The notes below the pieces were generated by a model. It saw only the letters and a program-made list of their open reading frames with translations, was not told where the DNA came from and did no database searches. From positions 2,198 through 66,197 of the forward strand of contig JABXIQ010000001.1 of NCBI GenBank assembly GCA_013373015.1: a DNA stretch of 64,000 bases. Direction: 5' to 3'. Source of the DNA: Kangiellaceae bacterium (GTDB lineage: Bacteria > Pseudomonadota > Gammaproteobacteria > Enterobacterales > Kangiellaceae). Every line of letters begins with the position of its first letter. Position 1 is the first letter of the stretch. This document shows positions 29,366-58,551 of the stretch, in pieces. The position numbers and the translations under genes were made by a program.

Positions 29366-30754
29366 TTAAGCTTCTAACAAATCTAAAATTTCTTTTGTTT
29401 TTTGCTTCATCAGCTCTTGATTTGCTTTGGATTCGACATTAAGCCTAACAACTGGCTCCGTATTTGATTTTCTCAAATTAAAACGCCAATTTTCAAATTC
29501 CATACTAATACCATCAAGCTTATCTATAACGATAGCCTCACTCTGATATTTTGATAGTATGGAATCAATAGCTTTATCAGGGTTATTTAAGCGACGATTA
29601 ATTTCTCCTGATGATGGAAATTTAGCAATTCGGTCATGCACCATTTCTGATAATTTCTGCTTTTTAACAGACAATAATTCAGCTATTAATAGCCAAGGTA
29701 TCATACCACTATCACAGTATGCAAAGTCTTTAAAATAATGATGCGCCGACATTTCACCGCCATATACTGCATCTTCTTCACGCATAACTTCTTTAATAAA
29801 AGCATGCCCACACTTAGATAAAATTGGAATACCACCATTTGATTTAACTATATCAATGGTATTCCAAGTAAGCCTTGGGTCATGAACAACCTTAGCACCA
29901 GGCTTCTTTTGTAAAAAAGCCTCAGCTAACAAACCAACTATATAATACCCTTCAATAAACTCTCCCTTCTCATCAAACAAAAAGCAACGGTCGAAATCAC
30001 CATCCCATGCTATCCCCATATCTGCACCATGCTTTAGAACAGCCTCAGATGTGGCCGCTCGATTTTCTGGCAAAATAGGATTGGGAATTCCATTAGGAAA
30101 GGTTCCATCCGCTTCATGATGAACCTTAATAAAAGTAATTGGGATGCCTTTTACTAAGAAGTATTTTTCAATTGCATCAACAACATGTCCAGCAGCACCA
30201 TTACCACTATTAACTACTAAATTCAAAGGCTTTAGATTATCCACATTTATATATGCAGCCAGATGATCAACAAAATCATGAAGTACGGATTTTTTAATTA
30301 TTAAGCCCTTATCACTCACTGGCTCAAAAGTCTCATCTCCATAAACTATTTCTTCAATTGCTTTAAGACCCGTATCGGCACTAATGGGCCTAGATTCCTC
30401 TTTAACGAGCTTCATCCCGTTATAATCAATTGGGTTATGGCTAGCAGTAACTTCAATTCCACCATCCACGCCAAGAAACGTTGTAGCAAAGTAAACTTCT
30501 TCTGTTCCTGTCATTCCAATGTCTATAACATCAACACCTTGATCAACTAAACCTTTAGCAACATTGTTCTTCAAACTTTCAGATGTCTCACGAATATCGC
30601 CACCAACAATTATAGTTTTTGGCTTCAAAAATTTTGCGAAAGCAGATCCTATCTTATAAGCAATTTCATCATTTAATTGCTCTCCCAACTTTCCTCTTAC
30701 GTCATACGCTTTAAATGGACTATTCAATTTATTAATTCCTATGCCAATGGCCAT
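29366..30754 (-). CDS. phosphomannomutase/phosphoglucomutase (AlgC/ManB type)
   Basis: 462 aa. It has the active-site Ser loop [13 protein letters not shown], the Mg loop AWDGDFDRC and the sugar loop GGEMSAHH. It is the last gene of the polysaccharide locus. Confidence 0.9.
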
Positions 30755-32508
30755 ATATTTGGCACTATAAATAATGTTACCAACATCACCATTATACTCA
30801 ATGGCAAACCTAACTTTAAATAATCAGAAAAACGATAATTACCAGCGCCATATACCATAAGATTAGTTTGATATCCCAAAGGAGTCATAAAGCTCGCTGA
30901 TGCAGCTATCATAATAACTATTGCAAAAGGCATAATATTCAAGCCAAACTGCTCACTAATACCACTTACAAAAGAAAAAGAAATCACAGCTGCAGCATTA
31001 TTAGTCACAAGCTCTGTTAGCACTAAAGTTACAAGGTAAACCACTACAAGCAAACCCAAACCATGACTAATATTTAACGCGTCAATAGCCGCTATCATTT
31101 GATCAGAAACGCCATTTAGTTTAATAGCCTCACCAAAACCGAATGCTATAACAATTAACGATAAAACCCGAAAATCAATAGATTTACCTGCTTGAGTAAT
31201 ATTACAACAGCCGGATACGATCGTTAATAAAGCCCCCATAAGCGATGCAATAACCATATCAACGATACCAAAAGTAGCTAAGACTACTACTAACAATAAA
31301 CTAGCCCAAGCATACTTAGCCTTATTTAGATGACTAGCTCTTACCTTCTCAACCCCCTCAATTAACAAAAAATCTCGGCTATAGCGCTGTTCTTGGATAA
31401 AAGAGTTATCGGCATGCAAAAGCAACAAATCACCTGCCTTTAATACTATATCCCCAGTTTTTTTATCAATTCTTTGACCTTGACGAATAACCGCAATAAT
31501 AACAGCACTGTAATAATGCCGAAAACCAGCCTCTCGCACAGTTTTACCAACCATTGGATTATGACGAGTAACAAGCACTTCCGCTAAAAAAGTATCACTT
31601 TTATCTTCTAATTTATAAATTTGCTTATCGGAATGCCTCAAACCCTTAATTGCTGTCAGCTCAGCCATTGCATCAGTTGTTCCTGAGAAAACTAATCTAT
31701 CATTGGCTTGCATTACTGTATTAGGCTCTACGTTACCGAAATACAGACCACTTCTTACTAATTGAATAAGAAAAGCCCCTTTCAAACCGCGTAACTGTGC
31801 CTCTTCTATCGTTTTGCCAACAAGTGAACTATCACCCTCAACAATAAGTTCAAATGTATAATCCCTTGATTTATATAAAGGTTTATCTGCCACATCACGC
31901 TCAGATAAAATAAATCGAGAGAAAAAAACCAAATACAATATCCCGATTAGAGTTATAGGCAAACCAACAATTGAAATTTCAAAAAAACCTATTGACTGCT
32001 CAGGATAGTACTGACTAATTAATCCGCTAACAACGAGGTTTGTACTGGTACCAATAATAGTACAGGTTCCTCCCAAAATAGCAGCATAACTCAGAGGTAA
32101 AAGAAGTTTAGATGGTGAAATATTATGCTTCTTACACCAAGAAACGACCACAGGTATTAAAGAAGCAACTATAGGGGTATTATTAAGAAAACCGCTCAAG
32201 ATAGCAGTGGGTGTCAACAATCTAGACTGATTTACTGCTAATGTTTTTTTTGGCTTAAGCAACCCATTAATAATGGGCATAAAAGCACCTGTTTCTTTGA
32301 TGCCTGCGGAAACAATAAAAAGTGCAGCTAAAGTAATTACTCCAGGATTAGAAAATCCAAGAAATGCTTTATTAATTGGTAGTAAACCTGAAAGTAAAAA
32401 GATTAAAAAAGCAACACCAAAGATAATAACGGGTTCTATGCGAGTTGCAAAAACCCCCACAAAAGCGCCCAGAATTATAAATATAGTAGAAAGAGAATAA
32501 TAATCCAT
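30739..32508 (-). CDS. SLC13/DASS-family anion permease with two central TrkA-C (RCK_C) domains; probable sulfate transporter
   Basis: 589 aa with polytopic halves flanking two RCK_C-like segments ([23 protein letters not shown]... and [23 protein letters not shown]...). It sits immediately downstream of sat-cysC. The substrate is inferred from context. Confidence 0.75.
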
Positions 32509-32531
32509 AAAAAAGGCGAGTAGTACTCGCC
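32509..32531 (-). terminator. terminator-like hairpin plus U6 directly abutting the permease ATG
   Basis: The minus strand reads GGCGAGT-ACT-ACTCGCC followed by TTTTTT and then ATG (32508). It lies 6 nt after the sat-cysC stop. Confidence 0.45.
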
Positions 32532-32537
32532 TCGATC

Positions 32538-34247
32538 TTATTTAATGAAGCCCATACTTTCTAGCTTTAGTAAGACTCGATGTGCAGCATGGTCTGGGGA
32601 AGACTCCAATGTATCTATAACCAGCTCCGCATTTTCTGGCACTTCATACGGGTCACTAATACCTGTAAACTCCTTAATGATACCCGCACGCGCTTTTGCA
32701 TAAAGACCTTTTCTGTCACGACGTTCGCATTCTTCAACAGGTGTAGCGACATGAACTTCTAAAAAGCCACCGTACTGTTCGATCATCTGGCGAACTTTAC
32801 GACGAGTTGCGGCATAAGGTGCAATTGGCGCGCATACAGCAATACCGCCATTTTTAGTGATTTCAGAAGCCACATAACCGATGCGCTCGATATTCAAATT
32901 ACGATGCTCTTTTGAAAACCCTAACTCACTAGATAAATTTTTACGAACCAAATCTCCGTCAAGCAAGGTTACTGGGCGACCACCCATTTCCAACATTTTA
33001 ACCATGAGAGCATTAGCGATAGTTGACTTACCAGAGCCTGATAAGCCCGTGAAGAAAACAGTAAAGCCTTGCTTGCTTCTGGGCGGTTTAGTTTTGCGCA
33101 ACTCCGCAACCACCTCAGGATAAGAGAACCACTCAGGAATATCCAACCCCTCGGCTAAGCGTCTACGCACTTCAGTTCCAGAAATATTTAGAACTGTCAT
33201 CCCTTCTTCAACATCATCAATTGGTTGATATTCTGCTTTTTCCTGAACATAAACCATCATTTGAAAAGGTACCATTTTAATACCTAACTCATCTTCATGT
33301 TTTATCAGGAGTTCTTGAGCATCATATGGACCATAGAAATCTTCACCTTGACTGTTTTTGCCAGGGCCAGCATGATCACGCCCAATAATAATATGAGTAC
33401 AGCCGTAATTCTTACGAATAATTGCGTGCCAAAGTGCCTCACGAGGACCGCCCATACGCATTGCTAGTGGTAGCAAACTTAGCATAGTGGTCTGCTCAGG
33501 ATACTGCTTCAAAATTTGCTCATAACAACGTACACGCGAATAATGGTCGATATCTCCAGGTTTTGTCATGCCTACCACTGGATGAATTAACAAATTTGCT
33601 TCCTGCTCTTTTGCAGCACGGAAAGTCAACTCTTGGTGCGCACGGTGCATCGGGTTACGAGTTTGGAATGCTACAATCTTTTTCCAGCCCCACTTTTTGA
33701 ATTTCGCACGAAGCTCGGCTGGCGAATCACGCAGACCTTTATAGTCATAATGAATGGGCATTTCCACGCCGCGTAACTTACCTCCTAAGTACACATCACC
33801 AGCTTGGTTCAATAAATAATCAACCGCTGGATGAGCCTCATCAGCTGCACCATAAACTTTTTCAGCTTCTTCGAGCTTATTTGGTAGCCACTTATCAGAA
33901 ACGTCTAAAATAGCTATAAGCACGCCTTCCTCATCACGCAAAGCAATACTATCTCCGACAGACATAGTATCGGCAAACTTAGAAGAAACATCTAAGGTAA
34001 TCGGCATTGGCCAAAGAGTCCCATCAGCCAATCTCATATCATCTAATACTGATCGATAGTCATCTTGGCTCAAAAACCCTTCTAACGGGGAAAAACCACC
34101 ATTAAGTAATAACTCGATATCACAAATCTGACGATGGGTTAAATCCCATGATAATAGCTCTTTGGCTTCGTTTTTACGGTTTTCAATTTGGTTTGTATCT
34201 AGCAAATTAACCAACACATCACCATGAGGTTGTATCAATTCAAGCAT
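32538..34247 (-). CDS. bifunctional sulfate adenylyltransferase (Sat-type ATP sulfurylase) / adenylylsulfate kinase
   Basis: 569 aa. The N-terminal part has the ATP sulfurylase motifs QTRNPMHRAHQELT and IIGRDHAGPG. The C-terminal part has the APS kinase P-loop FTGLSGSGKSTIANAL and LDGDLVRKNL. Confidence 0.9.
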   Translation of the reverse strand: MLELIQPHGDVLVNLLDTNQIENRKNEAKELLSWDLTHRQICDIELLLNGGFSPLEGFLSQDDYRSVLDDMRLADGTLWPMPITLDVSSKFADTMSVGDSIALRDEEGVLIAILDVSDKWLPNKLEEAEKVYGAADEAHPAVDYLLNQAGDVYLGGKLRGVEMPIHYDYKGLRDSPAELRAKFKKWGWKKIVAFQTRNPMHRAHQELTFRAAKEQEANLLIHPVVGMTKPGDIDHYSRVRCYEQILKQYPEQTTMLSLLPLAMRMGGPREALWHAIIRKNYGCTHIIIGRDHAGPGKNSQGEDFYGPYDAQELLIKHEDELGIKMVPFQMMVYVQEKAEYQPIDDVEEGMTVLNISGTEVRRRLAEGLDIPEWFSYPEVVAELRKTKPPRSKQGFTVFFTGLSGSGKSTIANALMVKMLEMGGRPVTLLDGDLVRKNLSSELGFSKEHRNLNIERIGYVASEITKNGGIAVCAPIAPYAATRRKVRQMIEQYGGFLEVHVATPVEECERRDRKGLYAKARAGIIKEFTGISDPYEVPENAELVIDTLESSPDHAAHRVLLKLESMGFIK

Positions 34248-34356
34248 AATTAGTCCTAAGTTCCACAGTTGGGGCTATTATATACAGAAACGTTGTTAAT
34301 GTCTTAATAGCTTTACTAATAAGTTTTATTAGTTTTACTTATCTTTTAAATAAACT

Positions 34357-35652
34357 CTACTGCCCAATTCCAAAGTAATGTAAACCATTTCTTTTGACTT
34401 CTTCAGGTTCATACAAATTTCTACCATCGAATATAACAGGCTTTTTTAGTTTATTTTTAAGTTTTACAAAATCAGCAGCTTTAAACTCTTCCCAGTCTGT
34501 AACAATAAACAAAGCATCAGCATTCTCAGTAGCTTCATATAAAGATTTAGTAATAGTAATAGGAAAGTCAAAATACTCACTGTCTGCAAAGTTTTCAAAT
34601 GCCACAGGATCATATATATGTACTTCTACATTTTCTGATCCTAAAGCATTCACTAAGTTAATTACAGGGGAATTGGTCAATGAAGCAGTATTTGCTCGAA
34701 ATGAAGCACCCCATATCACAACACGCTTGCCAGAAATATCGCTATTATAAAACTGCCAAAACTTCCTAAACAATATATCTTTTTGATCATTATTGATATC
34801 CAGAGTTGCTTTCATCATCAAAGAACCCGACTCTGAATTCTTAAATAGATCCTGGATATTGGAAACAGACTGCTCTAATGCTATTCCACCAAAACCACAT
34901 CCTGCTTGATTATATATATTCCCAAATCGCGGATCGCAAGACATCGCTTCAATAATAGCGGAAAAAGATAGTTGCTGTTCTTCAATTAAATTAGCCAGTT
35001 CATTGACAAAGCTGACTCTCATAGCCAAAAATGCTGAAACAGCATTATTAACCACCTCAACTTCAGAGCCTGAAAGTAATCTTGTGTTACCTGCCTTCTC
35101 AAAAGTTTTTTCAAGCAAATAAGTGGCTGTGTTTTTTGCCTCAATGCTATCAGTTCCAATTAATAATAACGGAGGACTATAAAAATCCTTTATCGCACTG
35201 CCTTCTCTAATGAAAGTTGGAATGGTTATCAACTCATGACAGAGACTAAAAGATTCATTTATAGCAGTTTGTTGAATATTCGAACTGATAAAATCATGTG
35301 TACCGACCCCTAGATTGGTTGTTATTATTATTTTTTGAGGTATGCTATTATCACATAATAAGAGTATAAACTTCAAAAGTTGATCTAAGCTTTTTCCTTT
35401 ATAAACTATCCAATGAATATTAGCCTTATTGAAGAGAGTTTGTTTCATAGATAACTTGCCTGAACTAAGCATATCATCAATCAATAAATCCAAATTAGGC
35501 TCTGAATAAGTTTGATTCACTTTTATACTAACTTCTGACTCAGGCCCCTTACAAATAGATGTCTTGAAATCAGACTGCGCTAAGCAAGCGGCAATTGCCC
35601 ATGATTCTAATGAGTCACCGTAAACATTTATACGCAAATCATCACTTTTCAT
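34357..35652 (-). CDS. UDP-glucose/GDP-mannose dehydrogenase-family paralog with degenerate NAD and catalytic motifs
   Basis: Trimmed to ATG 35652 (MKSDDLRINVYGDS...), which overlaps the pgi stop by 11 nt. Family segments are kept: IPTFIREGSAIKD, FLAMRVSFVNELAN, DPRFGNIYNQ and the C-terminal VVIWGASFRANTASLTNSPV. The GxGxxG loop reads GDSLES. The catalytic GG(S/Y)C-LPKD reads GGIALEQS. Confidence 0.7.
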   Translation of the reverse strand: MKSDDLRINVYGDSLESWAIAACLAQSDFKTSICKGPESEVSIKVNQTYSEPNLDLLIDDMLSSGKLSMKQTLFNKANIHWIVYKGKSLDQLLKFILLLCDNSIPQKIIITTNLGVGTHDFISSNIQQTAINESFSLCHELITIPTFIREGSAIKDFYSPPLLLIGTDSIEAKNTATYLLEKTFEKAGNTRLLSGSEVEVVNNAVSAFLAMRVSFVNELANLIEEQQLSFSAIIEAMSCDPRFGNIYNQAGCGFGGIALEQSVSNIQDLFKNSESGSLMMKATLDINNDQKDILFRKFWQFYNSDISGKRVVIWGASFRANTASLTNSPVINLVNALGSENVEVHIYDPVAFENFADSEYFDFPITITKSLYEATENADALFIVTDWEEFKAADFVKLKNKLKKPVIFDGRNLYEPEEVKRNGLHYFGIGQ

Positions 35653-37282
35653 CGCTAGAACTCCAAATATCAACTTGTGATAATAGCCATCTTGTTGAGT
35701 CATCAAAACGATCTCTTTGTTCTTGATTTTTTATGGCCTCTAACGTACTTTCAGATAAGACTTTGCCTAACTCTACTCCCCATTGATCAAAAGGATTAAT
35801 ATCCCAAAGACATGATAGAACATATGTTTTATGCTCATATAAGGCTATCAAACCTCCTAAAACTTGAGGAGTTAGCTGCTTTAAAAGAAGTGTTGAAGAA
35901 GGTTGATTACCTTTGTAGCTTTTGTGGGGATTAACATTATGAGTTTCTATAAACGAATTTCCAAAAGCTAAAACACTGGATTGAGCAAAGCAATTGGCAA
36001 GAGATAAGTTTTGCTGCAATAACAATGCTTGATTCTCAAGCTTAGAGTCAAGATCACTATCGTACCTTTTAACAGTAGTAATGAAGTCACAAAAAACATC
36101 TTGAGTTCCTTGGTGTAATAACTGGTAAAATGCGTGTTGAGCATTTGGTCCTAAATCACCCCAAATAATAGGCGATGTTTTAAATTTAACTTTTTCTCCA
36201 CTTATTGACACACACTTGCCATTACTTTCCATTTCTAATTGAGATAAATAGTTCGGCAATAACTTAAGTCTTCCGTCATAGGGTAATACAGCATTTGCAG
36301 TAATTTCCATAAAAGAAGAATTCCAGAAACTGATAAGTGCCAACACAATTGGTAAGTTTGATTCTGGCAGAGCATTGCTAAAATGCAAATCCATTGCATG
36401 TGCGCCATCAAGCATTTCATGAAAAATATCCATTCCATATTTAATAGCAATGGGCAGTCCAATGGCAGACCACAAAGAAAATCGCCCTCCCACCCAATTC
36501 CAAAGCATCAGTTGGTTTTCTTTTGATACTCCCCACTCATCCATTTTATTTTTATTCGCTGATATACCTAAAAAATGATGCTTCTTAACTAAGTTTTCAT
36601 CTTTGCCACCAAATGTCATCCACTTTAAAACAGTATTTACATTATAGAAAGTATCAACAGTGGTAAATGACTTTGAAGAAATGATGAATAAAGTTGTTTC
36701 TTGTTCTAGTCGTTCTAAAAGTTGTGAAATTTGAGTTCCGTCCATACTGGAAACAAAGTGAACCTGAACGTTTTTAGCACAACCTGGCTTAATTTCATGT
36801 AATGCATCACAGGCAAGTAAAGGACCAAGTTCAGATCCTCCTACCCCCAAAGAAACTACATCTTTTATGACTTTCCCAGTATAACCTCTCCATCGAGCAC
36901 TTCTGACTTTATTAACAATACTACTCATTGCATGCAATTGCTCATGCACGTCTAAAACACTTGAAGGATAATCTTTTGGAGGTTTCTGAGATTTTGGTGC
37001 TCTTAATATAAAATGTAACGCTGAACGATTTTCCGTTATGTTTACGTTCTTTCCAGAAAACAAATCGTATATTTTTTTTTGTATATTTATTTCAGAAAGG
37101 TATTCAAGGAGATAACCCCAAGTTTCTTGGCTGATGTTCTGTTTAGAAAAATCTAATTTGAAATTGTCAAAGTCGACAGAAAAGTTCTTCAACCTTTCTG
37201 TTTCTGATAGAAACAAATCACGAATATTTCTTTTCTTTGCTATTACTGCTTCATCATTGAGTATTTTTATCAGTGATTCCAT
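35642..37282 (-). CDS. pgi: glucose-6-phosphate isomerase
   Basis: Trimmed to ATG 37282, 1 nt after the rfbD stop. Pgi signatures LGVGGSELGP, GGRFSLWSAIG, NAQHAFYQLLHQGT and QWGVELGK are present. Confidence 0.9.
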   Translation of the reverse strand: MESLIKILNDEAVIAKKRNIRDLFLSETERLKNFSVDFDNFKLDFSKQNISQETWGYLLEYLSEINIQKKIYDLFSGKNVNITENRSALHFILRAPKSQKPPKDYPSSVLDVHEQLHAMSSIVNKVRSARWRGYTGKVIKDVVSLGVGGSELGPLLACDALHEIKPGCAKNVQVHFVSSMDGTQISQLLERLEQETTLFIISSKSFTTVDTFYNVNTVLKWMTFGGKDENLVKKHHFLGISANKNKMDEWGVSKENQLMLWNWVGGRFSLWSAIGLPIAIKYGMDIFHEMLDGAHAMDLHFSNALPESNLPIVLALISFWNSSFMEITANAVLPYDGRLKLLPNYLSQLEMESNGKCVSISGEKVKFKTSPIIWGDLGPNAQHAFYQLLHQGTQDVFCDFITTVKRYDSDLDSKLENQALLLQQNLSLANCFAQSSVLAFGNSFIETHNVNPHKSYKGNQPSSTLLLKQLTPQVLGGLIALYEHKTYVLSCLWDINPFDQWGVELGKVLSESTLEAIKNQEQRDRFDDSTRWLLSQVDIWSSSDEK

Positions 37283-37283
37283 T

Positions 37284-42725: not shown

Positions 42726-42726
42726 A

Positions 42727-49798: not shown

Positions 49799-51076
49799 TT
49801 AACTTTGTAGCCTTTTTAAAAATGGAAGAGTATTGATATGTAATTTTTTACTTACTAAATAAGTTAGTATAGTGTTGGAAAGTATAGCAACTATAGAAAC
49901 ACTTATTGCTGCTCCTATCAGCCCATAATTCGGTATCAAGATAATACAAGCTACACATAGTAGAAGACCACTGAACATTGTTACTTTTTTTGAGACTATC
50001 TCATTGCCCGATGTAATGAGCAGATAGTTCACAGAACCAGTAAGCGCATTTGCAAACTGACCTAGTGCTAATATTATTAGAGCACCCCCTCCTCTTGAAA
50101 AGTCATTTCCAAAAACACTCATTATCAAATCACCAAAAAAAATTATTACAAGCAATACAGGACTTGAGATACCTATAATTATTACTGACATTTTTCTTGC
50201 AATAGATTCAATTTCTTTCAAGTTGTCTTTCGCAAAAAGCGCTGAAAACCTAGGGGCAATCGCATTATTTACCGCAGACAAGGTAAAGCTCACCAACATT
50301 GCAACACGTATAGCTGTCCCAAATATTCCTACATCATCACTTGTAACCCAAAAACCCATTATCAATATTGGGGCATGTTGCAGTATCCCTCTATTTATTA
50401 TGGCAACTACGAGCAAATGCTTACTTCTTTCCCAAAGTTTTCTAAAAGGATAATACGGTACTTTATTCCAGCCACCTATTCTAATGACCCAATTAATGTA
50501 ACAAATTATCAAGACACAATAAGATGCAATGATATAGCTTAAATAAACGCCCTTGCTCTCAAAGTTTTGACTTAAAGGGTATATTAATATTAATCCTAAT
50601 AATGGCAGTAAAGCACCTTGAATCACCATACCAAGAGCATAATTACCACACCCCTTTAAAAATTCAGAATATAAATTAAATATTGTTAAAGGTAAGATTC
50701 CCAAAATCATTATATAGAATGCAGACTCAAAAAAAGCACTCTGAAAAACCTTATTACCAAATAGCGCTAATAATAGATAGATTATAACAATAATGGCCAA
50801 AGAAACTACTGTAGGCACCACAATCCCAGTTTTTGCAACAGCCTTAACTTTCATTTCTTGCTTATTTGCTTTATATTGCGCTGCATTCTTTAATAGAATA
50901 TTATCTAGTCCTAACTTTGAAAAGATACTAATTATAGTAATTGCAGACAATGCAAAGTAATAATGCCCTGAACTTTCCGCACCTAATATTCTCGCTACAA
51001 CTATATTGAATAGGAACATCAAGCCAGCACCAATCACCTTTAGTGTCATGGCAGAAAATGCTGTTTTAATTAGCAT
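49799..51076 (-). CDS. wzx: polysaccharide flippase (Wzx, MOP superfamily)
   Basis: 425 aa with about 12 TM helices. Its position and topology are typical for Wzx. Confidence 0.75.
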   Translation of the reverse strand: MLIKTAFSAMTLKVIGAGLMFLFNIVVARILGAESSGHYYFALSAITIISIFSKLGLDNILLKNAAQYKANKQEMKVKAVAKTGIVVPTVVSLAIIVIIYLLLALFGNKVFQSAFFESAFYIMILGILPLTIFNLYSEFLKGCGNYALGMVIQGALLPLLGLILIYPLSQNFESKGVYLSYIIASYCVLIICYINWVIRIGGWNKVPYYPFRKLWERSKHLLVVAIINRGILQHAPILIMGFWVTSDDVGIFGTAIRVAMLVSFTLSAVNNAIAPRFSALFAKDNLKEIESIARKMSVIIIGISSPVLLVIIFFGDLIMSVFGNDFSRGGGALIILALGQFANALTGSVNYLLITSGNEIVSKKVTMFSGLLLCVACIILIPNYGLIGAAISVSIVAILSNTILTYLVSKKLHINTLPFLKRLQS

Positions 51077-51110: not shown

Positions 51111-52142
51111 TTATTTAAGCTTCAACAATATTGCTTTTATTGAATCCCTTTTTGCTAGCAATAAATTATAGACAATTATTACGAATAGAAATGCAAGCAA
51201 TGAAACGGGTTCCGAAACATTCGTTTTATGTACATAAAAACCAATAAAAGCAAAAAGCAATGCAATGGCCGCTATAAATAATAAAGCATGCTTAGAATTA
51301 AAACCCAAATCCATAAATACATGATGTAAGTGTTCTCGATCTGCGACAAGAGGTGATTGACCTTTTTTTATACGTTTAAACATTACTGTCACCATATCTA
51401 TTAAGGGAACTGCAATAAACCACAAGACATGAGCAGGTTTAAGAACGGCCTCTTCCATTTGGCTGGATACAATTAACAACCATGCTGTCACCATTCCCAG
51501 CATCATACTACCAGCATCACCCATAAAAATTTTATTTTTCTTAGTTAAGAGTCCTAGATTAAACAATAAAAAAACTATAAGCGAAGCGGATAATACACCT
51601 ACTAACATTTGAATATTCGCATCAGGGACAATGAAACTTATAAAAATCAGACTTATAAGAGCTAAAACTCCCGCAAGTCCATCTATTCCATCCGTCATAT
51701 TAAACGCATTAATTCCTGCTAAAATTGCCATAATTGTAACAACACCTGCAGCGGGACCGGTAATCATATTACCAAACCCAAAAACATTTCCTAAATTGTC
51801 GATTTTATAATCTGTTCCAAAAGTTAATATAGCGGCAATTAAAACTTGAGCTACCAAACGCAACTTGGCATTTAAATCATAACGGTCATCAAGCATTCCA
51901 ATAAAAACTAACAAAGATATTGATATAATAATTAAATTTATGTGCTGACTGTCATTTATATACATGCTTATAGAAGTTAATGTCGCTAAATAAATTGCAA
52001 GCCCCCCTATTAGCGGTATATTACCAACATGCTGTTTCCTATTATCAGGCGTATCAACTAATCCCCAATTAACAGCAATTGGTCTTAACAAAAATACAGC
52101 TATAAAACAAACAATCGTAGAAACAATTAAACTATTATGCAC
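51111..52142 (-). CDS. wecA: undecaprenyl-phosphate HexNAc-1-phosphate transferase (WecA/MraY family)
   Basis: GTG start. The motifs are LDDRYDL, NMTDGIDGLAG and FMGDAGSMMLG. 343 aa, polytopic. Confidence 0.85.
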   Translation of the reverse strand: MHNSLIVSTIVCFIAVFLLRPIAVNWGLVDTPDNRKQHVGNIPLIGGLAIYLATLTSISMYINDSQHINLIIISISLLVFIGMLDDRYDLNAKLRLVAQVLIAAILTFGTDYKIDNLGNVFGFGNMITGPAAGVVTIMAILAGINAFNMTDGIDGLAGVLALISLIFISFIVPDANIQMLVGVLSASLIVFLLFNLGLLTKKNKIFMGDAGSMMLGMVTAWLLIVSSQMEEAVLKPAHVLWFIAVPLIDMVTVMFKRIKKGQSPLVADREHLHHVFMDLGFNSKHALLFIAAIALLFAFIGFYVHKTNVSEPVSLLAFLFVIIVYNLLLAKRDSIKAILLKLK

Positions 52143-52156
52143 TTTACAATCCTAAT

Positions 52157-53107
52157 TTATCTGTACTTCCTAACAACTGCCTGTAGCAAAACTATCATTA
52201 ATGATATTAAGCCACCTAAAAGGGTTCCAATTATACAAATAAGAGCTCTAGATGGCTTATCTTTCTCTTCAGGTATTTTAACTTCACTAATTTTTTTAAA
52301 AACAAACTCATCTGATACCTGTGCTAACATTTTTGTCTTATGTTGCTCTTGAACCAACTCACCAAAAACAGTCTTAATTTCTGCAATTGACGTCTGCCCT
52401 ATCTGCGACTCTAAATATTGAATTCTCTTGTTGGCTTCGTCCAATGCTTGATTTTTCATAATCTGATTAATTTCTTGAATCAAAAGATCCGTCCATTGTT
52501 TTGCAATATAAGGTGAGTAATGAGTTATCGAAATATTAACCAGTCCTGTTTCATTGTTTTGATCAACTATTAATCGACTTCTGTACTCTTCAAAAAGTTC
52601 CCAACTTGTAGGTTCAACAGTTTTCCCTTTTGGAGCATCACGAACCCAACTTTTAGTATTTTGATTATATTTTTCATCATCAATGATTAATTGATTCTTT
52701 GACTGGTCCCATCCTCTTGCTGCTAATAAAGGGACAGCCAGATCATACTTTGCGATAAAATTTTCGGCAAAGCCCCAGCTTTTCAATAATTCCATAGCCA
52801 CTATTGAATTCGATGCCCCGCTAGAATTAAAGCCAACCCCAGCCAATGAAGCTAAACCACCTAACTGAGAAGACAGTGCTCCAAAAGAGTCTTTGCCTTC
52901 ACTTTCAATAGGCTTTACAACTGCAGTAGCCTTATATTCATTAGGAAGATATATAGCCAGCCCTACCGACGATATTGCAAATAAGAAAGTGATAACTATT
53001 ATTATCCATTTTCCTTTCCATAGAATGGAAAAAATTTCTCCAACATCAATACCATACTGCTGGTAATGATTGTTTGCATCCGTGATTTCTTGATTTATTT
53101 GTGTCAT
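52157..53107 (-). CDS. wzz: chain-length determinant protein (Wzz/PCP-1 type, no kinase domain)
   Basis: 316 aa. A TM helix near the N-terminus (WIIIVITFLFAISSVGLAIYL) is followed by PNEYKA. The periplasmic region is coiled-coil, and a C-terminal TM helix is followed by RKYR. No Walker A motif or Tyr-rich tail. Confidence 0.8.
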   Translation of the reverse strand: MTQINQEITDANNHYQQYGIDVGEIFSILWKGKWIIIVITFLFAISSVGLAIYLPNEYKATAVVKPIESEGKDSFGALSSQLGGLASLAGVGFNSSGASNSIVAMELLKSWGFAENFIAKYDLAVPLLAARGWDQSKNQLIIDDEKYNQNTKSWVRDAPKGKTVEPTSWELFEEYRSRLIVDQNNETGLVNISITHYSPYIAKQWTDLLIQEINQIMKNQALDEANKRIQYLESQIGQTSIAEIKTVFGELVQEQHKTKMLAQVSDEFVFKKISEVKIPEEKDKPSRALICIIGTLLGGLISLMIVLLQAVVRKYR

Positions 53108-53125: not shown

Positions 53126-54583
53126 CTAAAGCTTAATTTTCCAAGACAATGATATATTGTATTTTTCTTTCTGATAACCAAAGGTATCTATAGTTTTATC
53201 TTTTACTTCTATTTGAGCCCCAATCAAACCGTACTTAGTTGTATTTAGATAGTGAAACTCTATCTGGTTAAACTTAATATTTGTTGTTGAAATACTATGC
53301 TCTTCACCGACACCATCACTATTCATGTTTACATTAGTAAGTTTTAATTTATATTTATCCCCATTCTTATGTGTCGCGATAAGTCCTAAGCCCACACTCT
53401 GTGAATCGTTATCAAATGTCGAGCCTAAGCTTCTTAGTTCTGTACGGTAACCTGTACGATAAATAGCATTGTTATATGTTAAATTTGTTCTATATTCATT
53501 TTCAGTATCGGCATACTCAATATATGAAGAAATATCCAAATCCCCCAACTGAAAGTCTGTAGAGTAACCGAATTGATAAATTTTCCTTGAAGGTAGATAA
53601 CCCGCCTCATCTTCACCTATTAATTGACCGTACAAGGAACCATAATATTTTTTTGTCGGAATTCTCCATTTAAAATCTATACCAGCCAACTGATTACCTG
53701 GCTCATTACTTCTGTCAGCTCCACAACCACCTTCAAGCTCATCACAATTATCTCTGCCAATAAGCAAATTAAAAAAGTTAGACAAGTTTTGAGGTCGTCC
53801 TTCCCCACCCCACTGAGCAGTTCTTCTTAAACCAATTTCCAAAGAATTAAATGGCTTGAAATTAACACTCATTCCTAATAACTTCGCATGTGGAACATGG
53901 CGGTCACTTTCTAATTGACCAATAAAAGCATTAAAGGTCCATGGACCTATCCATGATAACCAAGGAGACTCAAATGCGTCTGAATAATTACGCTGAATAG
54001 ATAATGCAGGAACAGGGCGAGCATTATTAGATAATATTAATGAAGTATCCCATCCAGAGCCATACCAACGCTCTTGAGCCCCAGCTGACAGAATCCAATT
54101 ACCCCATACAGCTGCAATATATGAATGATCCAACCTGTTTTCTTCTCCATCAATAGGATCAAAGGCTCTTGTTGCTTCAATATTCCATGCGAAATTTTTG
54201 CTTACGCCAGTATTTTTTGTTGTGATTTCAGCCTTTTCACGTCTATCGTCACCATAGTGACGAAGGATTTTTCCTTGATTACCAGCTTTTAGAATTAAGA
54301 AACTGTTGCTCTCGTGCTTAGTTTCAAAACGTGCTCGCCTTTTGACACGCATATAAATAGGCATTACCTTATTAGATAATAACTGGTTATCTACCTCTTC
54401 AAGATCACGTACTATCGGAGCCCACATCAAAGGCCAAGTAGTAATTGGCACCTTGATTACACCATGATTTGCTAACGCTTCAATATCCGCACGTAGCCAT
54501 GGATCGCGTGTATCAATCCAAGGCTCTGCTAAAACAGTAAAACTAGTTAACAGCAAGGCTAAAGACACGAAAACTTTTTGCAT
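53126..54583 (-). CDS. wzi: capsule assembly outer-membrane protein Wzi
   Basis: 485 aa with a signal peptide. Long collinear matches to remembered Wzi segments include TWPLMW, SPWLSWIGPW, VPHAKLLG, WGGEGRPQNLSNF, NEPGNQLAGIDFKW and GQLIGEDEAGYLPS. Confidence 0.85.
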   Translation of the reverse strand: MQKVFVSLALLLTSFTVLAEPWIDTRDPWLRADIEALANHGVIKVPITTWPLMWAPIVRDLEEVDNQLLSNKVMPIYMRVKRRARFETKHESNSFLILKAGNQGKILRHYGDDRREKAEITTKNTGVSKNFAWNIEATRAFDPIDGEENRLDHSYIAAVWGNWILSAGAQERWYGSGWDTSLILSNNARPVPALSIQRNYSDAFESPWLSWIGPWTFNAFIGQLESDRHVPHAKLLGMSVNFKPFNSLEIGLRRTAQWGGEGRPQNLSNFFNLLIGRDNCDELEGGCGADRSNEPGNQLAGIDFKWRIPTKKYYGSLYGQLIGEDEAGYLPSRKIYQFGYSTDFQLGDLDISSYIEYADTENEYRTNLTYNNAIYRTGYRTELRSLGSTFDNDSQSVGLGLIATHKNGDKYKLKLTNVNMNSDGVGEEHSISTTNIKFNQIEFHYLNTTKYGLIGAQIEVKDKTIDTFGYQKEKYNISLSWKIKL

Positions 54584-57066
54584 TAGAAACTCTTAACTGC
54601 AGCAGCGCCTAAAGCTAATTGGTACACGACTTGGCTTACACGAGTCCATAACTCTAACTGATCAACCCGATCCGTATCAATTGGTACAACAATGGTATCA
54701 CCTGGTTCAACTTGATGATCACCATGGGTTAACCAACCACTTTTATTTGGTAGCACCAATGAGCCATCAGCTTTAACGATATAAATTGAATCTTCATCCG
54801 CGGTATTTTTTTCACCACCACTTCGCTCAATATAATCAGCGAAATCTAATTTTTCATTATGAACATGCGATGTCGGCACCTGCACTTCACCCAAAACAGT
54901 GACTTCTTGTCTAAATGCAGGAATATGCAACTTATCACCATTAAGAAGCTCAATATCAGCAACTTCTTTATCTAATAAAGCTGGTAAGTCTATTACTAAG
55001 CGTCCTGTTGCTTCTGTTGAATCTAGAGTATCAACTAAACTGTCTAAAGCACTATAATCTGCTGATTTATTTGTAATCGAAGTTTTTTCTACTTTTTGCA
55101 CATCTATTTCTTGCTGTAGTCTATCGCGTAATTTTTGCAGTTCTTTTTGCTCACGTTTTCTTAGCTCTTCACGAGAAAAAACGGTAGCTTTAACATGTGC
55201 AAACTCTGTAAAACCACCCACTCTTTCAACTAACTGAGATAGAGTTTCACCGCGACGAATAGTATAAGTCCCAGGAAATTTAACTTCGCCAGTCACAGAA
55301 ACTTGAGCGGTCTCACGGTATTCAGGAGTTACTTTAATTTGCAACGTGTCATGCGGCTGTAACTTAAAACTAACCACACCTAAAAACTCTTGTTTTAAGT
55401 CAATTGGCATATGAATCACATTAGCTTGCTCAGGGTTTGACAAATCTTGGCGAGTTACTTCTGCAACCACTGAATAAGCGTCTTCTGTAAAACCACCACT
55501 TGCTTGAATTAGATCTGTTACACTCATACCTGAAGTAAGAGGATAGCGCCCCGGAAATTTTACTGACCCTTGTATCGCTACTGTTTTTTCTGGTGAAGTT
55601 AGTGATGACTGCCGCTTCAATAAATCAATAATATTCTCTAGTAGTGCATTTCGACTTTCAGAGTCTTTTGTTTTCTCTGCATTATTCAAAACAATAATCT
55701 GATCTCTTGCCTTAAGCACTAGATCAGCGGCTGATTTAGGTGTAGATAATACTTGTCTTAAATTAATTGAATAGGTTTCTATTTCTTTCAATAAGTCCGT
55801 TTCTCTTACTAATAAAGCAAAATCAATATTAGCATTAGGCTTTAGTAAATTAGCAGAACTAATCACATCACTGACTCGCATACCTTCCCGCCAAGCAATA
55901 TCTCCAGGACGATACGCATGACCATTTAAAGTCACAATATTTTCTTGTTTCTCTAACACTGGATAAATTTTAATCAAATCTCCATTTTGTAAACGCGTTG
56001 ATTTACCCTTATTTGATTTCAAATTTACATCAACAACTGTTTTATACCCTTGACTGTTTACACGCTCGACTCTTGCATCTTGTGGATATGCACTTGGCAG
56101 TAAGCCACCCGCTAAATTAACAAGTTCACCCAGAGTATTCTCATTTTTGATTTCATAAATGGCTGGACGCACCACTTCACCAGCAACTGCGGCGGTTTTC
56201 TTAACTGATGGAATAAAAATCACATCGCCTGCTTGAAGACGACGATCACGACGAGTGTCACCGCGTAACAATAAATCATACAAATCTAAGGTGGTAATTA
56301 GTTGACCATTTCTTTTAAGTTGGATATTACGTAACGAACCAACTTCTTTGACACCACCACTAACATACAGAGCATTCATAATGGTTGATAGAGAAGATAC
56401 AGTGTAAGCTCCTGGCTTGAAGGCCTCACCAAGAACAAAAATTTGCATGGAACGCAGCTCACCCATAGTAATGTTGGCTTGAACACCAATAATCTGCTCA
56501 TTAATTTGTTGAGTTAAAGATTCTTTTAATTCGGTATAAGAAAGACCTGCTACATTAATAGGCCCAAGTTCAGGGAATTGAATAGCACCATCGCGTCCCA
56601 CCTGCAATTCATAGCTACTATTCTCTTTACCGTAAAGTTGAACTTTAATCATATCACCAGGACCAACAATATAGTTTGCAGGAACAGGAATGTTGGCTAC
56701 TGGAGTATCGGAGGTAGGGATACCTGCAAAAAGATCATAACCAAACTTTTCTAACTCTTGATCAACCTTTTCAACATCTTTTGCTTCTTCTTGAGTTTCG
56801 CTAGTTTTCTCAAGTGGGAAACCAGCTAGTTCTCGAGGTAAAATCGCTCCATTAGAGCTTTGATTATTAACTTGCTGATTAGACTCGCTTTGACGTAAAG
56901 ATGCGCACATTGCATCCACATCATAACCAGCAGCTCGCGCCATCTGACGCTGCTGTTCAGTAGCATTTTCACAAAGCTGTTTTGCTTGTGATAAATCATT
57001 TGCTTTAACTGCGAAAGCAGCTGTTAAAGCAACCATTAAACTAAACAAGCCAATAATCTTTTTCAT
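54583..57066 (-). CDS. wza: large outer-membrane polysaccharide export protein (OPX/Wza-like, Poly_export plus multiple SLBB repeats)
   Basis: Trimmed to ATG 57066 (MKKIIGLFSLMVALTAAFAVKA), 4 nt after the cysQ stop. The Poly_export core is YIVGPGDMIKVQLYG...GPINVAGLSYTELKESL. It is followed by about 5-6 SLBB-like repeats (FPGRYPL..., FPGTYTI..., GDxIxIP). The signal peptide has no lipobox Cys. Confidence 0.85.
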   Translation of the reverse strand: MKKIIGLFSLMVALTAAFAVKANDLSQAKQLCENATEQQRQMARAAGYDVDAMCASLRQSESNQQVNNQSSNGAILPRELAGFPLEKTSETQEEAKDVEKVDQELEKFGYDLFAGIPTSDTPVANIPVPANYIVGPGDMIKVQLYGKENSSYELQVGRDGAIQFPELGPINVAGLSYTELKESLTQQINEQIIGVQANITMGELRSMQIFVLGEAFKPGAYTVSSLSTIMNALYVSGGVKEVGSLRNIQLKRNGQLITTLDLYDLLLRGDTRRDRRLQAGDVIFIPSVKKTAAVAGEVVRPAIYEIKNENTLGELVNLAGGLLPSAYPQDARVERVNSQGYKTVVDVNLKSNKGKSTRLQNGDLIKIYPVLEKQENIVTLNGHAYRPGDIAWREGMRVSDVISSANLLKPNANIDFALLVRETDLLKEIETYSINLRQVLSTPKSAADLVLKARDQIIVLNNAEKTKDSESRNALLENIIDLLKRQSSLTSPEKTVAIQGSVKFPGRYPLTSGMSVTDLIQASGGFTEDAYSVVAEVTRQDLSNPEQANVIHMPIDLKQEFLGVVSFKLQPHDTLQIKVTPEYRETAQVSVTGEVKFPGTYTIRRGETLSQLVERVGGFTEFAHVKATVFSREELRKREQKELQKLRDRLQQEIDVQKVEKTSITNKSADYSALDSLVDTLDSTEATGRLVIDLPALLDKEVADIELLNGDKLHIPAFRQEVTVLGEVQVPTSHVHNEKLDFADYIERSGGEKNTADEDSIYIVKADGSLVLPNKSGWLTHGDHQVEPGDTIVVPIDTDRVDQLELWTRVSQVVYQLALGAAAVKSF

Positions 57067-57070
57067 TCGA

Positions 57071-57853
57071 CTAACCTTGTACAATAAAATAAGGATTTAA
57101 TAACGACTCTTTGGTGTTATAGAGTAATTCTTCGTTTGTTTCATAATTAATACAACGCCCACCAGCTGCTACCACAACAGCATGAGCCGCAGCGGTATCC
57201 CACTCAGATGTTGGGCCAAGTCTAGGATATATATCTGCGGCACCTTCTGCAACTAAGCACAGTTTTAATGAACTACCCATTGGGATCATTTCAAAATCAC
57301 TGAATTGCTGCAAATAGGTTTGCATATCGTCAGAAGCATGTGAGCGCGATCCCACGATTTTAATCTTATTTAGCGGATTTATTGGAGCTGCACTTTGTAT
57401 TTTAACTGCCGAAGCATTTGCTACCTGCTTTTTGGCACCAATATCAGTGGAACCGAAATATAAAGTATCAAGCACAGGAGCATAAACCACCCCTAAAACA
57501 GGGTTATGCTTATAGATCAAAGCAATATTAACGGTAAACTCACCATTTTTCTTAATAAACTCTTTTGTTCCATCCAGAGGGTCTATCAACCAATAAGTTT
57601 CCCAAGACGAACGCTCTTGCCAGCTAATGGCTGAAGACTCTTCTGATAAAATGGGAATATCTGGGGTTAATGCCTCAAGTTGGGCAACTATATGGTGATG
57701 AGAAGCTAGATCTGCTTCAGTGAGAGGAGACTCATCTTTTTTTTCATAAATTTCGAAATCCTTTTGATAAATTTCGAGAATTTTTTTACCTGCATCTTTG
57801 GCTATTTGACAAATCTGCTGCAATTTTTCAGCTTGTAATAATATTTTATCCAT
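57071..57853 (-). CDS. cysQ: 3'(2'),5'-bisphosphate nucleotidase (PAP phosphatase)
   Basis: 260 aa with the inositol-monophosphatase-fold motifs ILSEES, WLIDPLDGTKEF and WDTAAAHAVV. Confidence 0.9.
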   Translation of the reverse strand: MDKILLQAEKLQQICQIAKDAGKKILEIYQKDFEIYEKKDESPLTEADLASHHHIVAQLEALTPDIPILSEESSAISWQERSSWETYWLIDPLDGTKEFIKKNGEFTVNIALIYKHNPVLGVVYAPVLDTLYFGSTDIGAKKQVANASAVKIQSAAPINPLNKIKIVGSRSHASDDMQTYLQQFSDFEMIPMGSSLKLCLVAEGAADIYPRLGPTSEWDTAAAHAVVVAAGGRCINYETNEELLYNTKESLLNPYFIVQG

Positions 57854-57871
57854 TGATAATCCTGTTTTATA

Positions 57872-57883
57872 TACGCTACCGCC
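57872..57883 (-). promoter_or_regulatory. ops (operon polarity suppressor) element, the RfaH recruitment site
   Basis: The minus strand reads GGCGGTAGCGTA. This is 11 of 12 identical to the E. coli ops GGCGGTAGCGTG, and the G12 position is A. It lies 18 nt upstream of the cysQ ATG, with an AGGA Shine-Dalgarno sequence in between. Confidence 0.7.
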
Positions 57884-57974
57884 CTTAGGTTATGGCTCCC
57901 AAAGTACCCAAATTCCGTTAGCTTGCTATTATTATTGTCCAGCTTACTGCTGTAACATCTCAGAAATTGGCGCT

Positions 57975-58002
57975 ATTATATAGCTTATTCATCAACTCTA
58001 AA
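57975..58002 (-). promoter_or_regulatory. candidate sigma70 promoter of the polysaccharide operon
   Basis: On the minus strand: TTTAGA (58002-57997), 16-nt spacer, TATAAT (57980-57975). It lies between the rfaH stop and ops. Motif match only. Confidence 0.3.
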
Positions 58003-58038
58003 ACCTTGTTTCTGTAATATAAGTGTAATAAATGGAAT

Positions 58039-58551
58039 TTATTTTTCTAATTTTATGACGGCACTATTGGCAAGCTCTAATTCAGTAATTTTCCCAAGCA
58101 CGTTCAGCAAAACTATTGAGCGCATCTCACCACTGGAGTTTTTGTAAACCCCCTCTAAATCCTTGAACGGTCCTTCGATAATTTGCACTTTTTCGCCTGA
58201 CTTTGGCGCGTTACTCTTTACCTTAACAGCACCTTTATCCATAAGTTGCAGTGTTTGCAATAATTGCGCAGGGACTTTAGCAGGAACGCCAGCAAATTTA
58301 ACAAAGTCACGCACTCCACGCGTAGAGCGTATTGTGGACCAGCCTTGGCCGTTAGTATTTAAACGAATAAAAATATAGTTAGGAAAAAGAGCCTCTGTAA
58401 GCTGCTTACGCTTACCTCTAATAATTTTTTCTAGTTCGATAGTAGGAAGGTAACTTTCTACGCCTTGATTAGCCAAATGCTCTTGTGCTCTAAGTTCTTG
58501 TTTGGCTTTACAATGCACTAGATACCATTGCATGCCTTGCTCAATACTCAT
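58039..58551 (-). CDS. rfaH: transcription antiterminator RfaH (NusG paralog)
   Basis: 170 aa. MQWYLVHCKAKQELRAQEHL parallels E. coli RfaH MQSWYLLYCKRGQLQRAQEHL. It also has LFPNYIFIR and a C-terminal KOW-like segment. The start may be the internal ATG 58533 (MQWYL...). Confidence 0.85.
   Translation of the reverse strand: MSIEQGMQWYLVHCKAKQELRAQEHLANQGVESYLPTIELEKIIRGKRKQLTEALFPNYIFIRLNTNGQGWSTIRSTRGVRDFVKFAGVPAKVPAQLLQTLQLMDKGAVKVKSNAPKSGEKVQIIEGPFKDLEGVYKNSSGEMRSIVLLNVLGKITELELANSAVIKLEK

Follow-up and report, generated by a model that had tools for sequence, protein, structure and literature searches.

The minus strand of a 64,000-nt window from an assembled Kangiellaceae genome (GCA_013373015.1, contig JABXIQ010000001.1, positions 2,198 to 66,197) carries a capsule/O-antigen locus of 24 genes that runs over 28.5 kb from cysQ to a phosphomannomutase/phosphoglucomutase (PMM) gene. 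This locus is best explained as encoding a sulfated polysaccharide of rhamnose and hexosamine or N-acetylhexosamine (HexNAc), built by the Wzx/Wzy route, and we regard such a polymer, heavily sulfated, as its probable product. Genes for synthesis of 3′-phosphoadenosine 5′-phosphosulfate (PAPS) as donor of sulfate, sulfotransferases, glycosyltransferases (GTs) and export genes are all co-located in it; the combination of PAPS genes with sulfotransferases was proposed as a hallmark of sulfated-polysaccharide clusters by the authors of a study on Vibrio sp. KMM 8419 (PMC11641403). Comparison with a sister genome further indicates that the locus consists of a lineage-conserved frame, to which the sulfation supply genes belong, around an exchangeable cassette. 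An earlier note on this DNA had described a factory for a sulfated rhamnose/hexosamine surface polysaccharide. The polymer remains the best reading, but the analysis supports neither a dedication of the sulfur genes to it nor a single transcript for the whole locus.

The list of open reading frames (ORFs) gives an unbroken minus-strand run from 58551 down to 29366, between uvrB on one side and tRNA-Val and nth on the other; all features described below lie on this strand. The run, strand and coordinates are as in the earlier note, whereas its count of 25 genes from cysQ to PMM is reached only if the upstream RfaH gene is included. Neighbouring genes overlap or are separated by at most 34 nt, apart from a 109-nt gap (34248-34356), a 29-nt gap (32509-32537) and the 185-nt leader between the RfaH gene and cysQ, which agrees with the spacing claimed before. 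Families were called by Pfam gathering cut-offs (GA) and by curated NCBIfam/TIGRFAM cut-offs, and the JUMPstart element by its Rfam gathering score. By these measures the earlier assignments to families with curated cut-offs pass, but those of Wzy, WecA and an ‘SLC13’ permease fall short. The parts named were correct, although a glucose-6-phosphate isomerase (PGI; 35642-37306) and a gene resembling ugd (34357-35652) had been left out.

The four sulfotransferases, here designated ST1 to ST4, are bona fide PAPS-type enzymes: the family searches that the earlier note had proposed place all of them above the Pfam cut-off, and the 5′-phosphosulfate-binding and 3′-phosphate-binding motifs for PAPS (GxxRSGTT/KAATT/KSGTT and R(D/E/G/S)..(R)..S) are readable in each. 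ST1 (42727..43719; PF13469 79.2 bits, GA 27; GTGRSGTT, TRSGSDTCLS) is like tyrosylprotein sulfotransferases (TPSTs), with TPST1/2 as nearest structures in the PDB. ST2 (43723..44754; PF13469 88.3 bits, GA 27, and PF00685 64; GNSRSGTT, IRDPRAVMLS) is like CurM and cytosolic sulfotransferases (SULTs); its nearest structures are 4gox/4gbm (CurM/OLS, cytosolic SULTs), and it has weak similarity to NoeE. ST3 (48046..48933; PF00685 49.1 bits, GA 22; GVEKAATT, LREPVSRAFS) resembles heparan sulfate (HS) 3-O-sulfotransferases, with 3rnl (1.3e-23) and HS3ST5 (8.6e-14) as structural relatives. ST4 (48920..49798; PF00685 56.5 bits, GA 22; GESKSGTT, IRGVLDRIVS) resembles both N-deacetylase/N-sulfotransferase (NDST) and HS-3-OST, its relatives in the PDB being 3rnl and the NDST N-sulfotransferase domain. 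Thus, the solved relatives of ST1-ST4 are all sulfotransferases, and the four enzymes span three subfamilies. An exact look-up of ST2 gave no match. A word-indexed search that returned only four relatives had made ST4 look like an orphan; a full HMMER scan overturned this by placing it in a large family, whose 1,321 representatives at E<=1e-10 reach 42% identity at most.

Sequence inspection found no signal peptide in any of ST1-ST4, which suggests that the lipid-linked unit would be sulfated in the cytoplasm, before Wzx acts. ST2 (residues ~300-318) and ST4 (~235-254) each have one C-terminal hydrophobic segment that could hold them at the inner membrane, close to the lipid-linked substrate.

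Acceptor specificity is not readable from sequence, and some or all of these enzymes could instead act away from the repeat unit, on lipid A/core, protein tyrosine or a small molecule, leaving the polymer lightly sulfated or unsulfated. The closest solved relatives of ST1, tyrosylprotein sulfotransferases, and of ST2, polyketide and cytosolic small-molecule sulfotransferases, fit that idea. Genomic context argues against it, and we consider it quite improbable: the four genes are embedded as overlapping or abutting ORFs among Wzx, Wzy, a GT4 enzyme and a DUF1972 GT; in an unrelated contig, all four have orthologs that again accompany this GT4, DUF1972 GT and Wzx; and published clusters of the same logic yield sulfated sugars. 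In that contig, from ENA, the order is nearly the same (Wzx, putative Wzy, ST3-like, ST4-like, GT4, ST2-like, ST1-like, DUF1972 GT). A Halieaceae metagenome-assembled genome (MAG) has Wzz and WecA, then Wzx, ST4-like, GT4, epimerase, ST2-like, ST3/4-like and DUF1972 GT genes, and three metagenome contigs have paired ST2-like/ST1-like or ST2-like/ST3-like genes. By gene order and homology, the cassette is therefore not unique, as orthologous sets with three or four sulfotransferases occur elsewhere.

The genes around the sulfotransferases form an assembly and export line. After cysQ come a large outer-membrane polysaccharide exporter (OPX; 54583..57084; Poly_export 80.3 bits and four SLBB domains, 153 bits; 833 aa, signal-peptide-like N-terminus), 63% identical to its ortholog in Kangiella sp. 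M94, and Wzi, which anchors capsule at the outer membrane (53126..54583; PF14052 270.9 bits). These two together make up a capsule export module. Read from its first TTG, the OPX ORF shares 14 nt with cysQ; on a Logan contig, its start was called six codons later (827 aa), which would remove the overlap. They are followed by a chain-length determinant, Wzz (52157..53107; PF02706 51.5 bits; 316 aa), of the polysaccharide co-polymerase 1 (PCP-1) type, with hydrophobic segments only at its N and C termini and without a kinase domain, and by a WecA-type polyprenyl-phosphate HexNAc-1-phosphate transferase as the initiating enzyme (51111..52142; PF00953 106 bits, GA 27). The flippase Wzx (49799..51076; PF01943 47.7 bits, cut-off 28.2; MatE 47.5) has ~10-12 hydrophobic segments, and a putative Wzy polymerase (46655..48049; 464 aa) has at least eight.

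Such a set could also make only a Wzz-regulated lipopolysaccharide (LPS) O-antigen, with no capsule at all. The PCP-1 type of Wzz points in this direction, as does the lack of a kinase-phosphatase pair: Pfam and NCBIfam scans of the locus genes found neither the Wzc tyrosine autokinase nor the Wzb phosphatase (LMWPc) of group 1-type capsules. However, the operon begins, after cysQ, with Wzi and the large OPX, which are conserved there, and the capsular polysaccharide (CPS) and O-polysaccharide of Kangiella japonica share a structure, according to papers that cite the original work, which fits a locus feeding both. We therefore judge an O-antigen-only locus unlikely and retain the capsule/O-antigen reading.

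The sugar genes point to rhamnose. Only three glycosyl-transfer steps are encoded, by the WecA-type enzyme, the GT4 enzyme (44723..45931; PF00534 130 bits) and a DUF1972 + GT1 enzyme (40676..41737; PF09314 98.4 bits). The last is rhamnosyltransferase-like, its best NCBIfam match being the β-1,4-rhamnosyltransferase Cps2T (182 bits, below the cut-off of that model). The rmlB-rmlA-rmlC-rmlD genes of the dTDP-L-rhamnose pathway (37284..40661, by Pfam scan), PGI (35642..37306; NF001211 645.5 bits, cut-off 492) and PMM (29366..30754; four PGM_PMM domains, CpsG-like 738 bits) together give an in-locus path from fructose-6-phosphate to dTDP-L-rhamnose. Two further enzymes are a PIG-L/LmbE-family de-N-acetylase (45928..46686; PF02585 35.8 bits, GA 28.2; PHSDDE motif) and a GH20-like hydrolase (41709..42737; PF00728 34.6 bits, GA 22.3) with the HxGxDE motif (LHIGHDE) and a signal-peptide-like N-terminus.

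A uronic acid made through the ugd-like gene was considered and ruled out. This degenerate Ugd paralog (34357..35652) scores 180.8 against a TIGR03026 cut-off of 189.8 and only 20 bits for the N-domain; its NAD loop GxGxxG reads GDSLES and the catalytic GGSCFPKD, with its Cys and Lys, reads GGIALEQS, whereas the UDP-binding C-domain is retained. Because both the NAD loop and the catalytic motif are lost, the gene is no evidence for uronic acid. The sister locus described below has a Ugd paralog at the same site, directly upstream of sat-cysC (L087 8656-9921), with the same losses at 32% identity. The protein could be a sensor of nucleotide sugars or a conserved pseudo-enzyme.

Sulfate activation is encoded at the two ends of the locus. 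Sat-CysC (32538..34247; NF004040 986 bits, cut-off 669) is a PAPS synthase in which PUA_2, ATP sulfurylase and adenosine 5′-phosphosulfate (APS) kinase are fused; it is 92% identical to its counterpart in the sister MAG and 74-82% identical to those of Pleionea and Aliikangiella. Next to it is a permease of the CitMHS/IT superfamily (30739..32508; CitMHS 213 bits and two TrkA_C domains), a putative sulfate importer. CysQ (57071..57853; TIGR01331 324.1 bits, cut-off 228.8), the 3′(2′),5′-bisphosphate nucleotidase that removes 3′-phosphoadenosine 5′-phosphate (PAP), falls below the E. coli-specific NF008182 cut-off (293.5 versus 379). It is the first gene of the operon, the first after the ops element in two Kangiella genomes and the first gene of the sister locus.

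The permease pairs with sat-cysC in six of the loci compared (L001, L002, L005, L007, L087 and L089), and PMM follows sat-cysC in four (L003, L006, L008 and L087). In Pleionea, Aliikangiella and related MAGs, sat-cysC usually stands at the end of a polysaccharide locus. When the 10 kb upstream of sat-cysC was searched with phmmer and Pfam in Pleionea, Aliikangiella and MAG loci, no sulfotransferases were found; their association with sat-cysC is thus not a universal feature of Kangiellaceae.

Related gene sets occur outside this family. In Neiella litorisoli (L084, 5270-10777), an operon of cysD, cysN, a CitMHS/TrkA_C permease, cysC and cysQ lies beside a sulfotransferase, GTs and an RgpF-like gene; this is another gammaproteobacterial sulfate-activation set next to polysaccharide genes, and it links the permease family to sulfate activation. 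Across dozens of MAGs of Acidobacteriota, Deltaproteobacteria and Acidimicrobiia (L010-L079), a Sat-CysC fusion of the same type adjoins a CysQ-like gene, and roughly 18 of these loci have sulfotransferase homologs within 10 kb, mostly ST2-like and a few ST1- or ST3-like. A module of Sat-CysC and CysQ, in part with a sulfotransferase, is thus widespread outside gammaproteobacteria.

The sister MAG (GCA_013372875.1, contig JABXIW010000486.1, our loci L087 and L088; also Logan SRR11434629_4062) has a locus with the same edges and a different centre. Its 5′ part encodes UvrB (90% identity to the window), an MlaC-like protein (40%), CysQ (65%), Wzi, Wza, Wzb, Wzc and a 333-aa protein. The centre has two Sulfotransfer_2 genes, a GT2, a Glyco_hydro_cc gene, an arylsulfotransferase-like gene and a Sulfotransfer_3 gene, then Wzx, Bac_transf and a nucleotidyltransferase. 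The 3′ part returns to PGI (53%), the Ugd-like gene (32%), SatCysC (92%), the permease (84%) and PMM (80%). The arylsulfotransferase-like gene of this centre belongs to PF05935, a PAPS-independent family.

Because the sister MAG keeps the edges around a different centre, we assign the sulfation supply genes to the frame and the centre to the cassette. As far as this synteny reaches, cysQ on the 5′ side and PGI, the pseudo-Ugd gene, sat-cysC, permease and PMM on the 3′ side are a lineage-conserved locus frame, and the GT, sulfotransferase, Wzx/Wzy and export genes inside it are an exchangeable cassette. The base composition agrees with this picture: sat-cysC has a G+C content of 0.427, close to that of the flanking genome (UvrB, 0.441), and all other locus genes lie between 0.28 and 0.385.

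More distant relatives show a similar pattern at the 5′ side. Kangiella shandongensis and Kangiella sp. M94 share the order UvrB, MlaC-like protein, RfaH, ops, CysQ and OPX/Wzi, and their genes further downstream differ (ABC-2 transporter genes in one, OPX-Wzi-Wzz and then other GTs in the other). The Logan assembly SRR11434628 has the same run of UvrB, MlaC-like protein, RfaH, CysQ and OPX, and CysQ, ST4 and Sat-CysC of the window each match proteins of an NCBI ‘MAG: Kangiellaceae bacterium’ at 100% identity. The claim that the locus carries its own sulfation economy as dedicated cargo is not borne out, given that cysQ and the set of sat-cysC, permease and PMM belong to the family frame, that sat-cysC has background G+C and that it stands alone in Pleionea litopenaei. 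The frame-and-cassette picture is the more general point, and sulfated capsule ‘serotypes’ may be a trait of the Kangiellaceae family.

Transcription of the operon head is well supported, on sequence grounds, as being under RfaH control. The gene for RfaH, an operon-specific antiterminator of the NusG family, lies immediately upstream (58039..58551; TIGR01955 177.9 bits, cut-off 144.5; NF006534 178.1, cut-off 124) and occupies the same position in K. shandongensis and Kangiella sp. M94. In the leader (57854..58038), a promoter-like TTTAGA-16-TATAAT (58002-57975) is followed by JUMPstart (57909-57872), which scores 41.2 bits with Rfam RF01707 against a gathering score of 35. The ops element, GGCGGTAGCGTA (57883-57872), lies inside this match; the promoter-like site is upstream of it, and the cysQ ATG comes 19 nt further on. 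It agrees with the ops 12-mer GGCGGTAGnnTG at 11 of 12 positions. In the leaders of the two Kangiella genomes (L082 and L083), the -10 box and the block CTTTGGGAGCC..AACC.A.GGGCGGTAGCGT are invariant. It is the Rfam score of this leader, together with its conservation in both genomes, that argues for RfaH control, and the earlier reading of an RfaH/ops-driven capsule/O-antigen locus is upheld to the extent that a JUMPstart/ops leader with an adjacent RfaH gene lies ahead of the assembly line. A second exact GGCGGTAG in the window (8598-8605) lies within a coding ORF (8320-9387, 355 aa) and is attributed to chance, as two matches arose in 7 of 100 shuffled sequences.

That all 28.5 kb form a single antiterminated unit is a weaker claim, to judge from three features near sat-cysC and from the sister genome, where both RfaH and ops are missing, and the earlier statement to this effect is not supported. 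First, the 109-nt gap before sat-cysC (34248..34356) contains a promoter-like AAGACA-17-TATAAT (34305-34277), with a -10 context (TATATAATAGCCC) similar to the one in the main promoter (TATATAATAGCGCC). Second, a divergently oriented ORF lies directly upstream of sat-cysC in Pleionea mediterranea (L002, where it is WecA-like) and in an Aliikangiella MAG (L007), so sat-cysC probably has its own promoter there. Third, a GC-rich hairpin with a T-run occupies the 29 nt between sat-cysC and the permease (32509..32537; −15.3 kcal/mol, z = −3.7), and its T-run ends directly before the permease start codon (TTTTTTATG). The stem is kept and the loop altered in the sister locus (L087 11711-11740). This element looks like a conserved attenuator or partial terminator, which could set the ratio of sat-cysC to permease expression. 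Alignment of the region upstream of sat-cysC across eight loci was too divergent to give a conserved promoter, and the alignment with the sister locus was likewise uninformative.

These features also bear on a second account of the sulfur genes, in which sat-cysC, the permease and cysQ are housekeeping genes of sulfate activation and PAP recycling that happen to lie at the locus edges, with their own promoter and possibly sulfur control, and the sulfotransferases draw on the general PAPS pool. We take this to be a tangible possibility, held with some reserve. The promoter-like site, the divergent ORFs and the conserved hairpin all fit it, as do the background G+C of sat-cysC and its conservation in the sister MAG at a level similar to that of UvrB while the cassette was replaced. 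The homologous permease of Neiella, between cysN and cysC, lies inside a cysDN-cysC-cysQ operon, and the CysQ orthologs, at 62-67% identity, seem to come from the only cysQ that each Kangiella genome has. On the other hand, cysQ lies downstream of JUMPstart/ops in three genomes and should be transcribed with the capsule genes; sat-cysC adjoins nucleotide-sugar and polysaccharide genes (galU, ugd, PMM, GTs), and never cysH or cysIJ, in every Kangiellaceae locus examined; and the fused APS kinase makes PAPS, the donor of sulfotransferases. The housekeeping account and a sulfation locus are not mutually exclusive.

Several observations weigh against the sulfated-polymer reading in its full form. 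In P. litopenaei, sat-cysC, the permease, galU and ugd stand alone beside thrS; together with the background G+C and the promoter-like site, this suggests that sat-cysC may serve general sulfur metabolism. The permease fails the DASS (TIGR00785, 79 versus 198.6) and Na_sulph_symp (PF00939, 19.5 versus 27) models, so the SLC13 label of the earlier note gives way to CitMHS with two TrkA_C domains as the best fit, and a role in sulfate transport follows solely from linkage to sat-cysC or cysDN/cysC. Two assembly genes score just short of their models: the WecA-type enzyme has 313.5 bits for TIGR02380 (cut-off 326), and the putative Wzy has 30.4 bits for Wzy_C (GA 31.7). With neither an RfaH gene nor ops in the sister locus, antitermination is no intrinsic property of the locus frame. 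Finally, the source is an uncultured marine MAG, known here from its genes alone.

Taking the sulfated Wzx/Wzy polymer as the preferred reading, we propose the following course. The sigma-70-like promoter and the JUMPstart/ops leader would recruit RfaH encoded just upstream, allowing RNA polymerase to read through a long operon that starts with cysQ and continues with the export genes for the large OPX, Wzi and PCP-1 Wzz. At the cytoplasmic face, the WecA-type enzyme would start the unit as undecaprenyl diphosphate-HexNAc, which the GT4 enzyme and the DUF1972 rhamnosyltransferase-like enzyme would extend to about a trisaccharide, with dTDP-L-rhamnose supplied in the locus from fructose-6-phosphate by PGI, then PGM/PMM, then RmlABCD. 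The PIG-L enzyme may de-N-acetylate the hexosamine, and the four cytoplasmic PAPS-dependent sulfotransferases, from three subfamilies, would sulfate the lipid-linked unit. PAPS would come from Sat-CysC, fed by the adjacent CitMHS/TrkA_C permease, and CysQ would remove the inhibitory product PAP. Wzx would then flip the unit, Wzy polymerise it and Wzz set the chain length, and the polymer would be ligated to lipid A-core and/or exported through the OPX and held at the surface by Wzi.

The degree of sulfation can be gauged by analogy with the synechan xss cluster of Synechocystis PCC 6803, in which eight GTs and two sulfotransferases match eight sugars and two sulfates (PMC8205485). Because gene counts there match the sugar:sulfate stoichiometry, up to four sulfates on about three sugars could be present here. 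A bolder version is a heparin-like, densely sulfated capsule with at most four sulfates per ~three sugars, in which PIG-L and the NDST-like ST3 or ST4 produce an N-sulfated hexosamine. We regard this as a long shot, in part because the orthologous cassettes of the ENA contig and the Halieaceae MAG (L085 and L086) have sulfotransferases and no PIG-L gene, which weakens the case for PIG-L as an obligate partner of ST3 or ST4 in N-sulfation. If true, it would be a bacterial, lipid-linked analogue of the N-deacetylase/N-sulfotransferase chemistry of animals, and the heparin-like capsule would be made by a compact operon supplying its own precursors and donor.

Both edges of the locus carry further features. 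On the strand of PMM and 45 nt downstream of it, a tRNA-Val(GAC) gene (29244-29320) and, after this, a strong 13-bp terminator hairpin (29237-29208) mark where the low-G+C locus has its 3′ boundary; the tRNA gene is a plausible recombination anchor at this edge. On the 5′ side, the gene 25 nt upstream of RfaH (58577-59293; PF05494 56 bits) encodes a protein resembling the MlaC family of periplasmic lipid-binding proteins, which Kangiella genomes keep at the same position with 40-56% identity.

There is demand for sulfated polysaccharides from bacteria that could replace heparin, chondroitin sulfate and fucoidan as animal-free products, and few clusters tie genes to structure. The present locus is unusually compact and self-contained, with precursor supply from fructose-6-phosphate, dTDP-rhamnose synthesis, PAPS synthesis, PAP removal, four sulfotransferases, polymerisation and export on one strand within 28.5 kb; it could thus plausibly serve as a template for heterologous production and yield new carbohydrate sulfotransferases. 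It reveals no new principle; its added value lies in the frame-and-cassette picture and in the caveats on dedication and co-transcription.

With the RfaH/ops operons of Enterobacteriaceae and Vibrio, the locus shares an RfaH ortholog and a 5′ untranslated region in which ops (GGCGGTAGCGT) lies in JUMPstart before a long polysaccharide operon; it differs in that the RfaH gene directly precedes the operon it would act on and in that cysQ comes first behind ops. In enterobacteria, cysQ is not known to belong to the RfaH regulons.

The earlier note had not recognised the arrangement as one described in gammaproteobacteria, but two such clusters are published. The CPS cluster of Cobetia marina KMM 1449 (Oceanospirillales) has cysN/C, cysD, cysQ, a sulfate permease, a sulfotransferase and rml genes; nuclear magnetic resonance proved that rhamnose 2-sulfate (Rha2S) is part of the CPS (PMC11766843). 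It shares with the present locus a gammaproteobacterial capsule setting, PAPS synthesis, cysQ, a sulfate permease (putative in the present locus), sulfotransferase and an rml operon, with sulfated rhamnose in the Cobetia product. Cobetia follows the ABC-transporter (Kps) pathway and has kpsSC and the lipid-carrier genes wcb, ~70 genes in several divergent regions, CysDN/CysNC-type activation and one described sulfotransferase, whereas here a single-strand 28.5-kb Wzx/Wzy locus with OPX, Wzi, Wzz and an RfaH/JUMPstart leader has a Sat-CysC fusion (PUA and homomeric ATP sulfurylase), a CitMHS/TrkA_C permease and four sulfotransferases. The CPS/O-antigen cluster of Vibrio sp. KMM 8419 contains second copies of cysN, cysD and cysC, three sulfotransferases and rml genes (PMC11641403). 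It likewise combines PAPS genes, sulfotransferases and rml, and has a Wzx-type O-antigen part with a sulfotransferase. It differs in its 80 genes and its ABC-transporter-dependent CPS part, and that paper makes no mention of cysQ or a sulfate permease.

Within the same family, K. japonica KMM 3897 has a sulfated CPS identical in structure to its LPS O-polysaccharide (Kokoulin et al. 2022, Carbohydr Polym 290:119477, as cited in PMC12472108 and PMC11766843). Such an identity is what a locus with Wzx/Wzy, Wzz and OPX/Wzi would give, and on the strength of these citing papers the present locus offers a candidate explanation, at the level of genes, for the sulfated CPS that chemistry has established in that species. 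A literature search on sulfur assimilation in Kangiella yielded nothing useful. Synechan is also a Wzx/Wzy-dependent sulfated polysaccharide with in-cluster sulfotransferases of distinct subfamilies, but its cluster is cyanobacterial, plasmid-borne, without an in-cluster OPX and regulated by XssQ/R/S rather than RfaH, and PMC8205485 does not mention a PAPS synthesis gene, cysQ or a transporter. The principle of the present locus is thus already published; new in detail is the combination of Wzx/Wzy assembly, a Sat-CysC fusion, a CitMHS/TrkA_C permease and four sulfotransferases in a JUMPstart operon that begins with cysQ.

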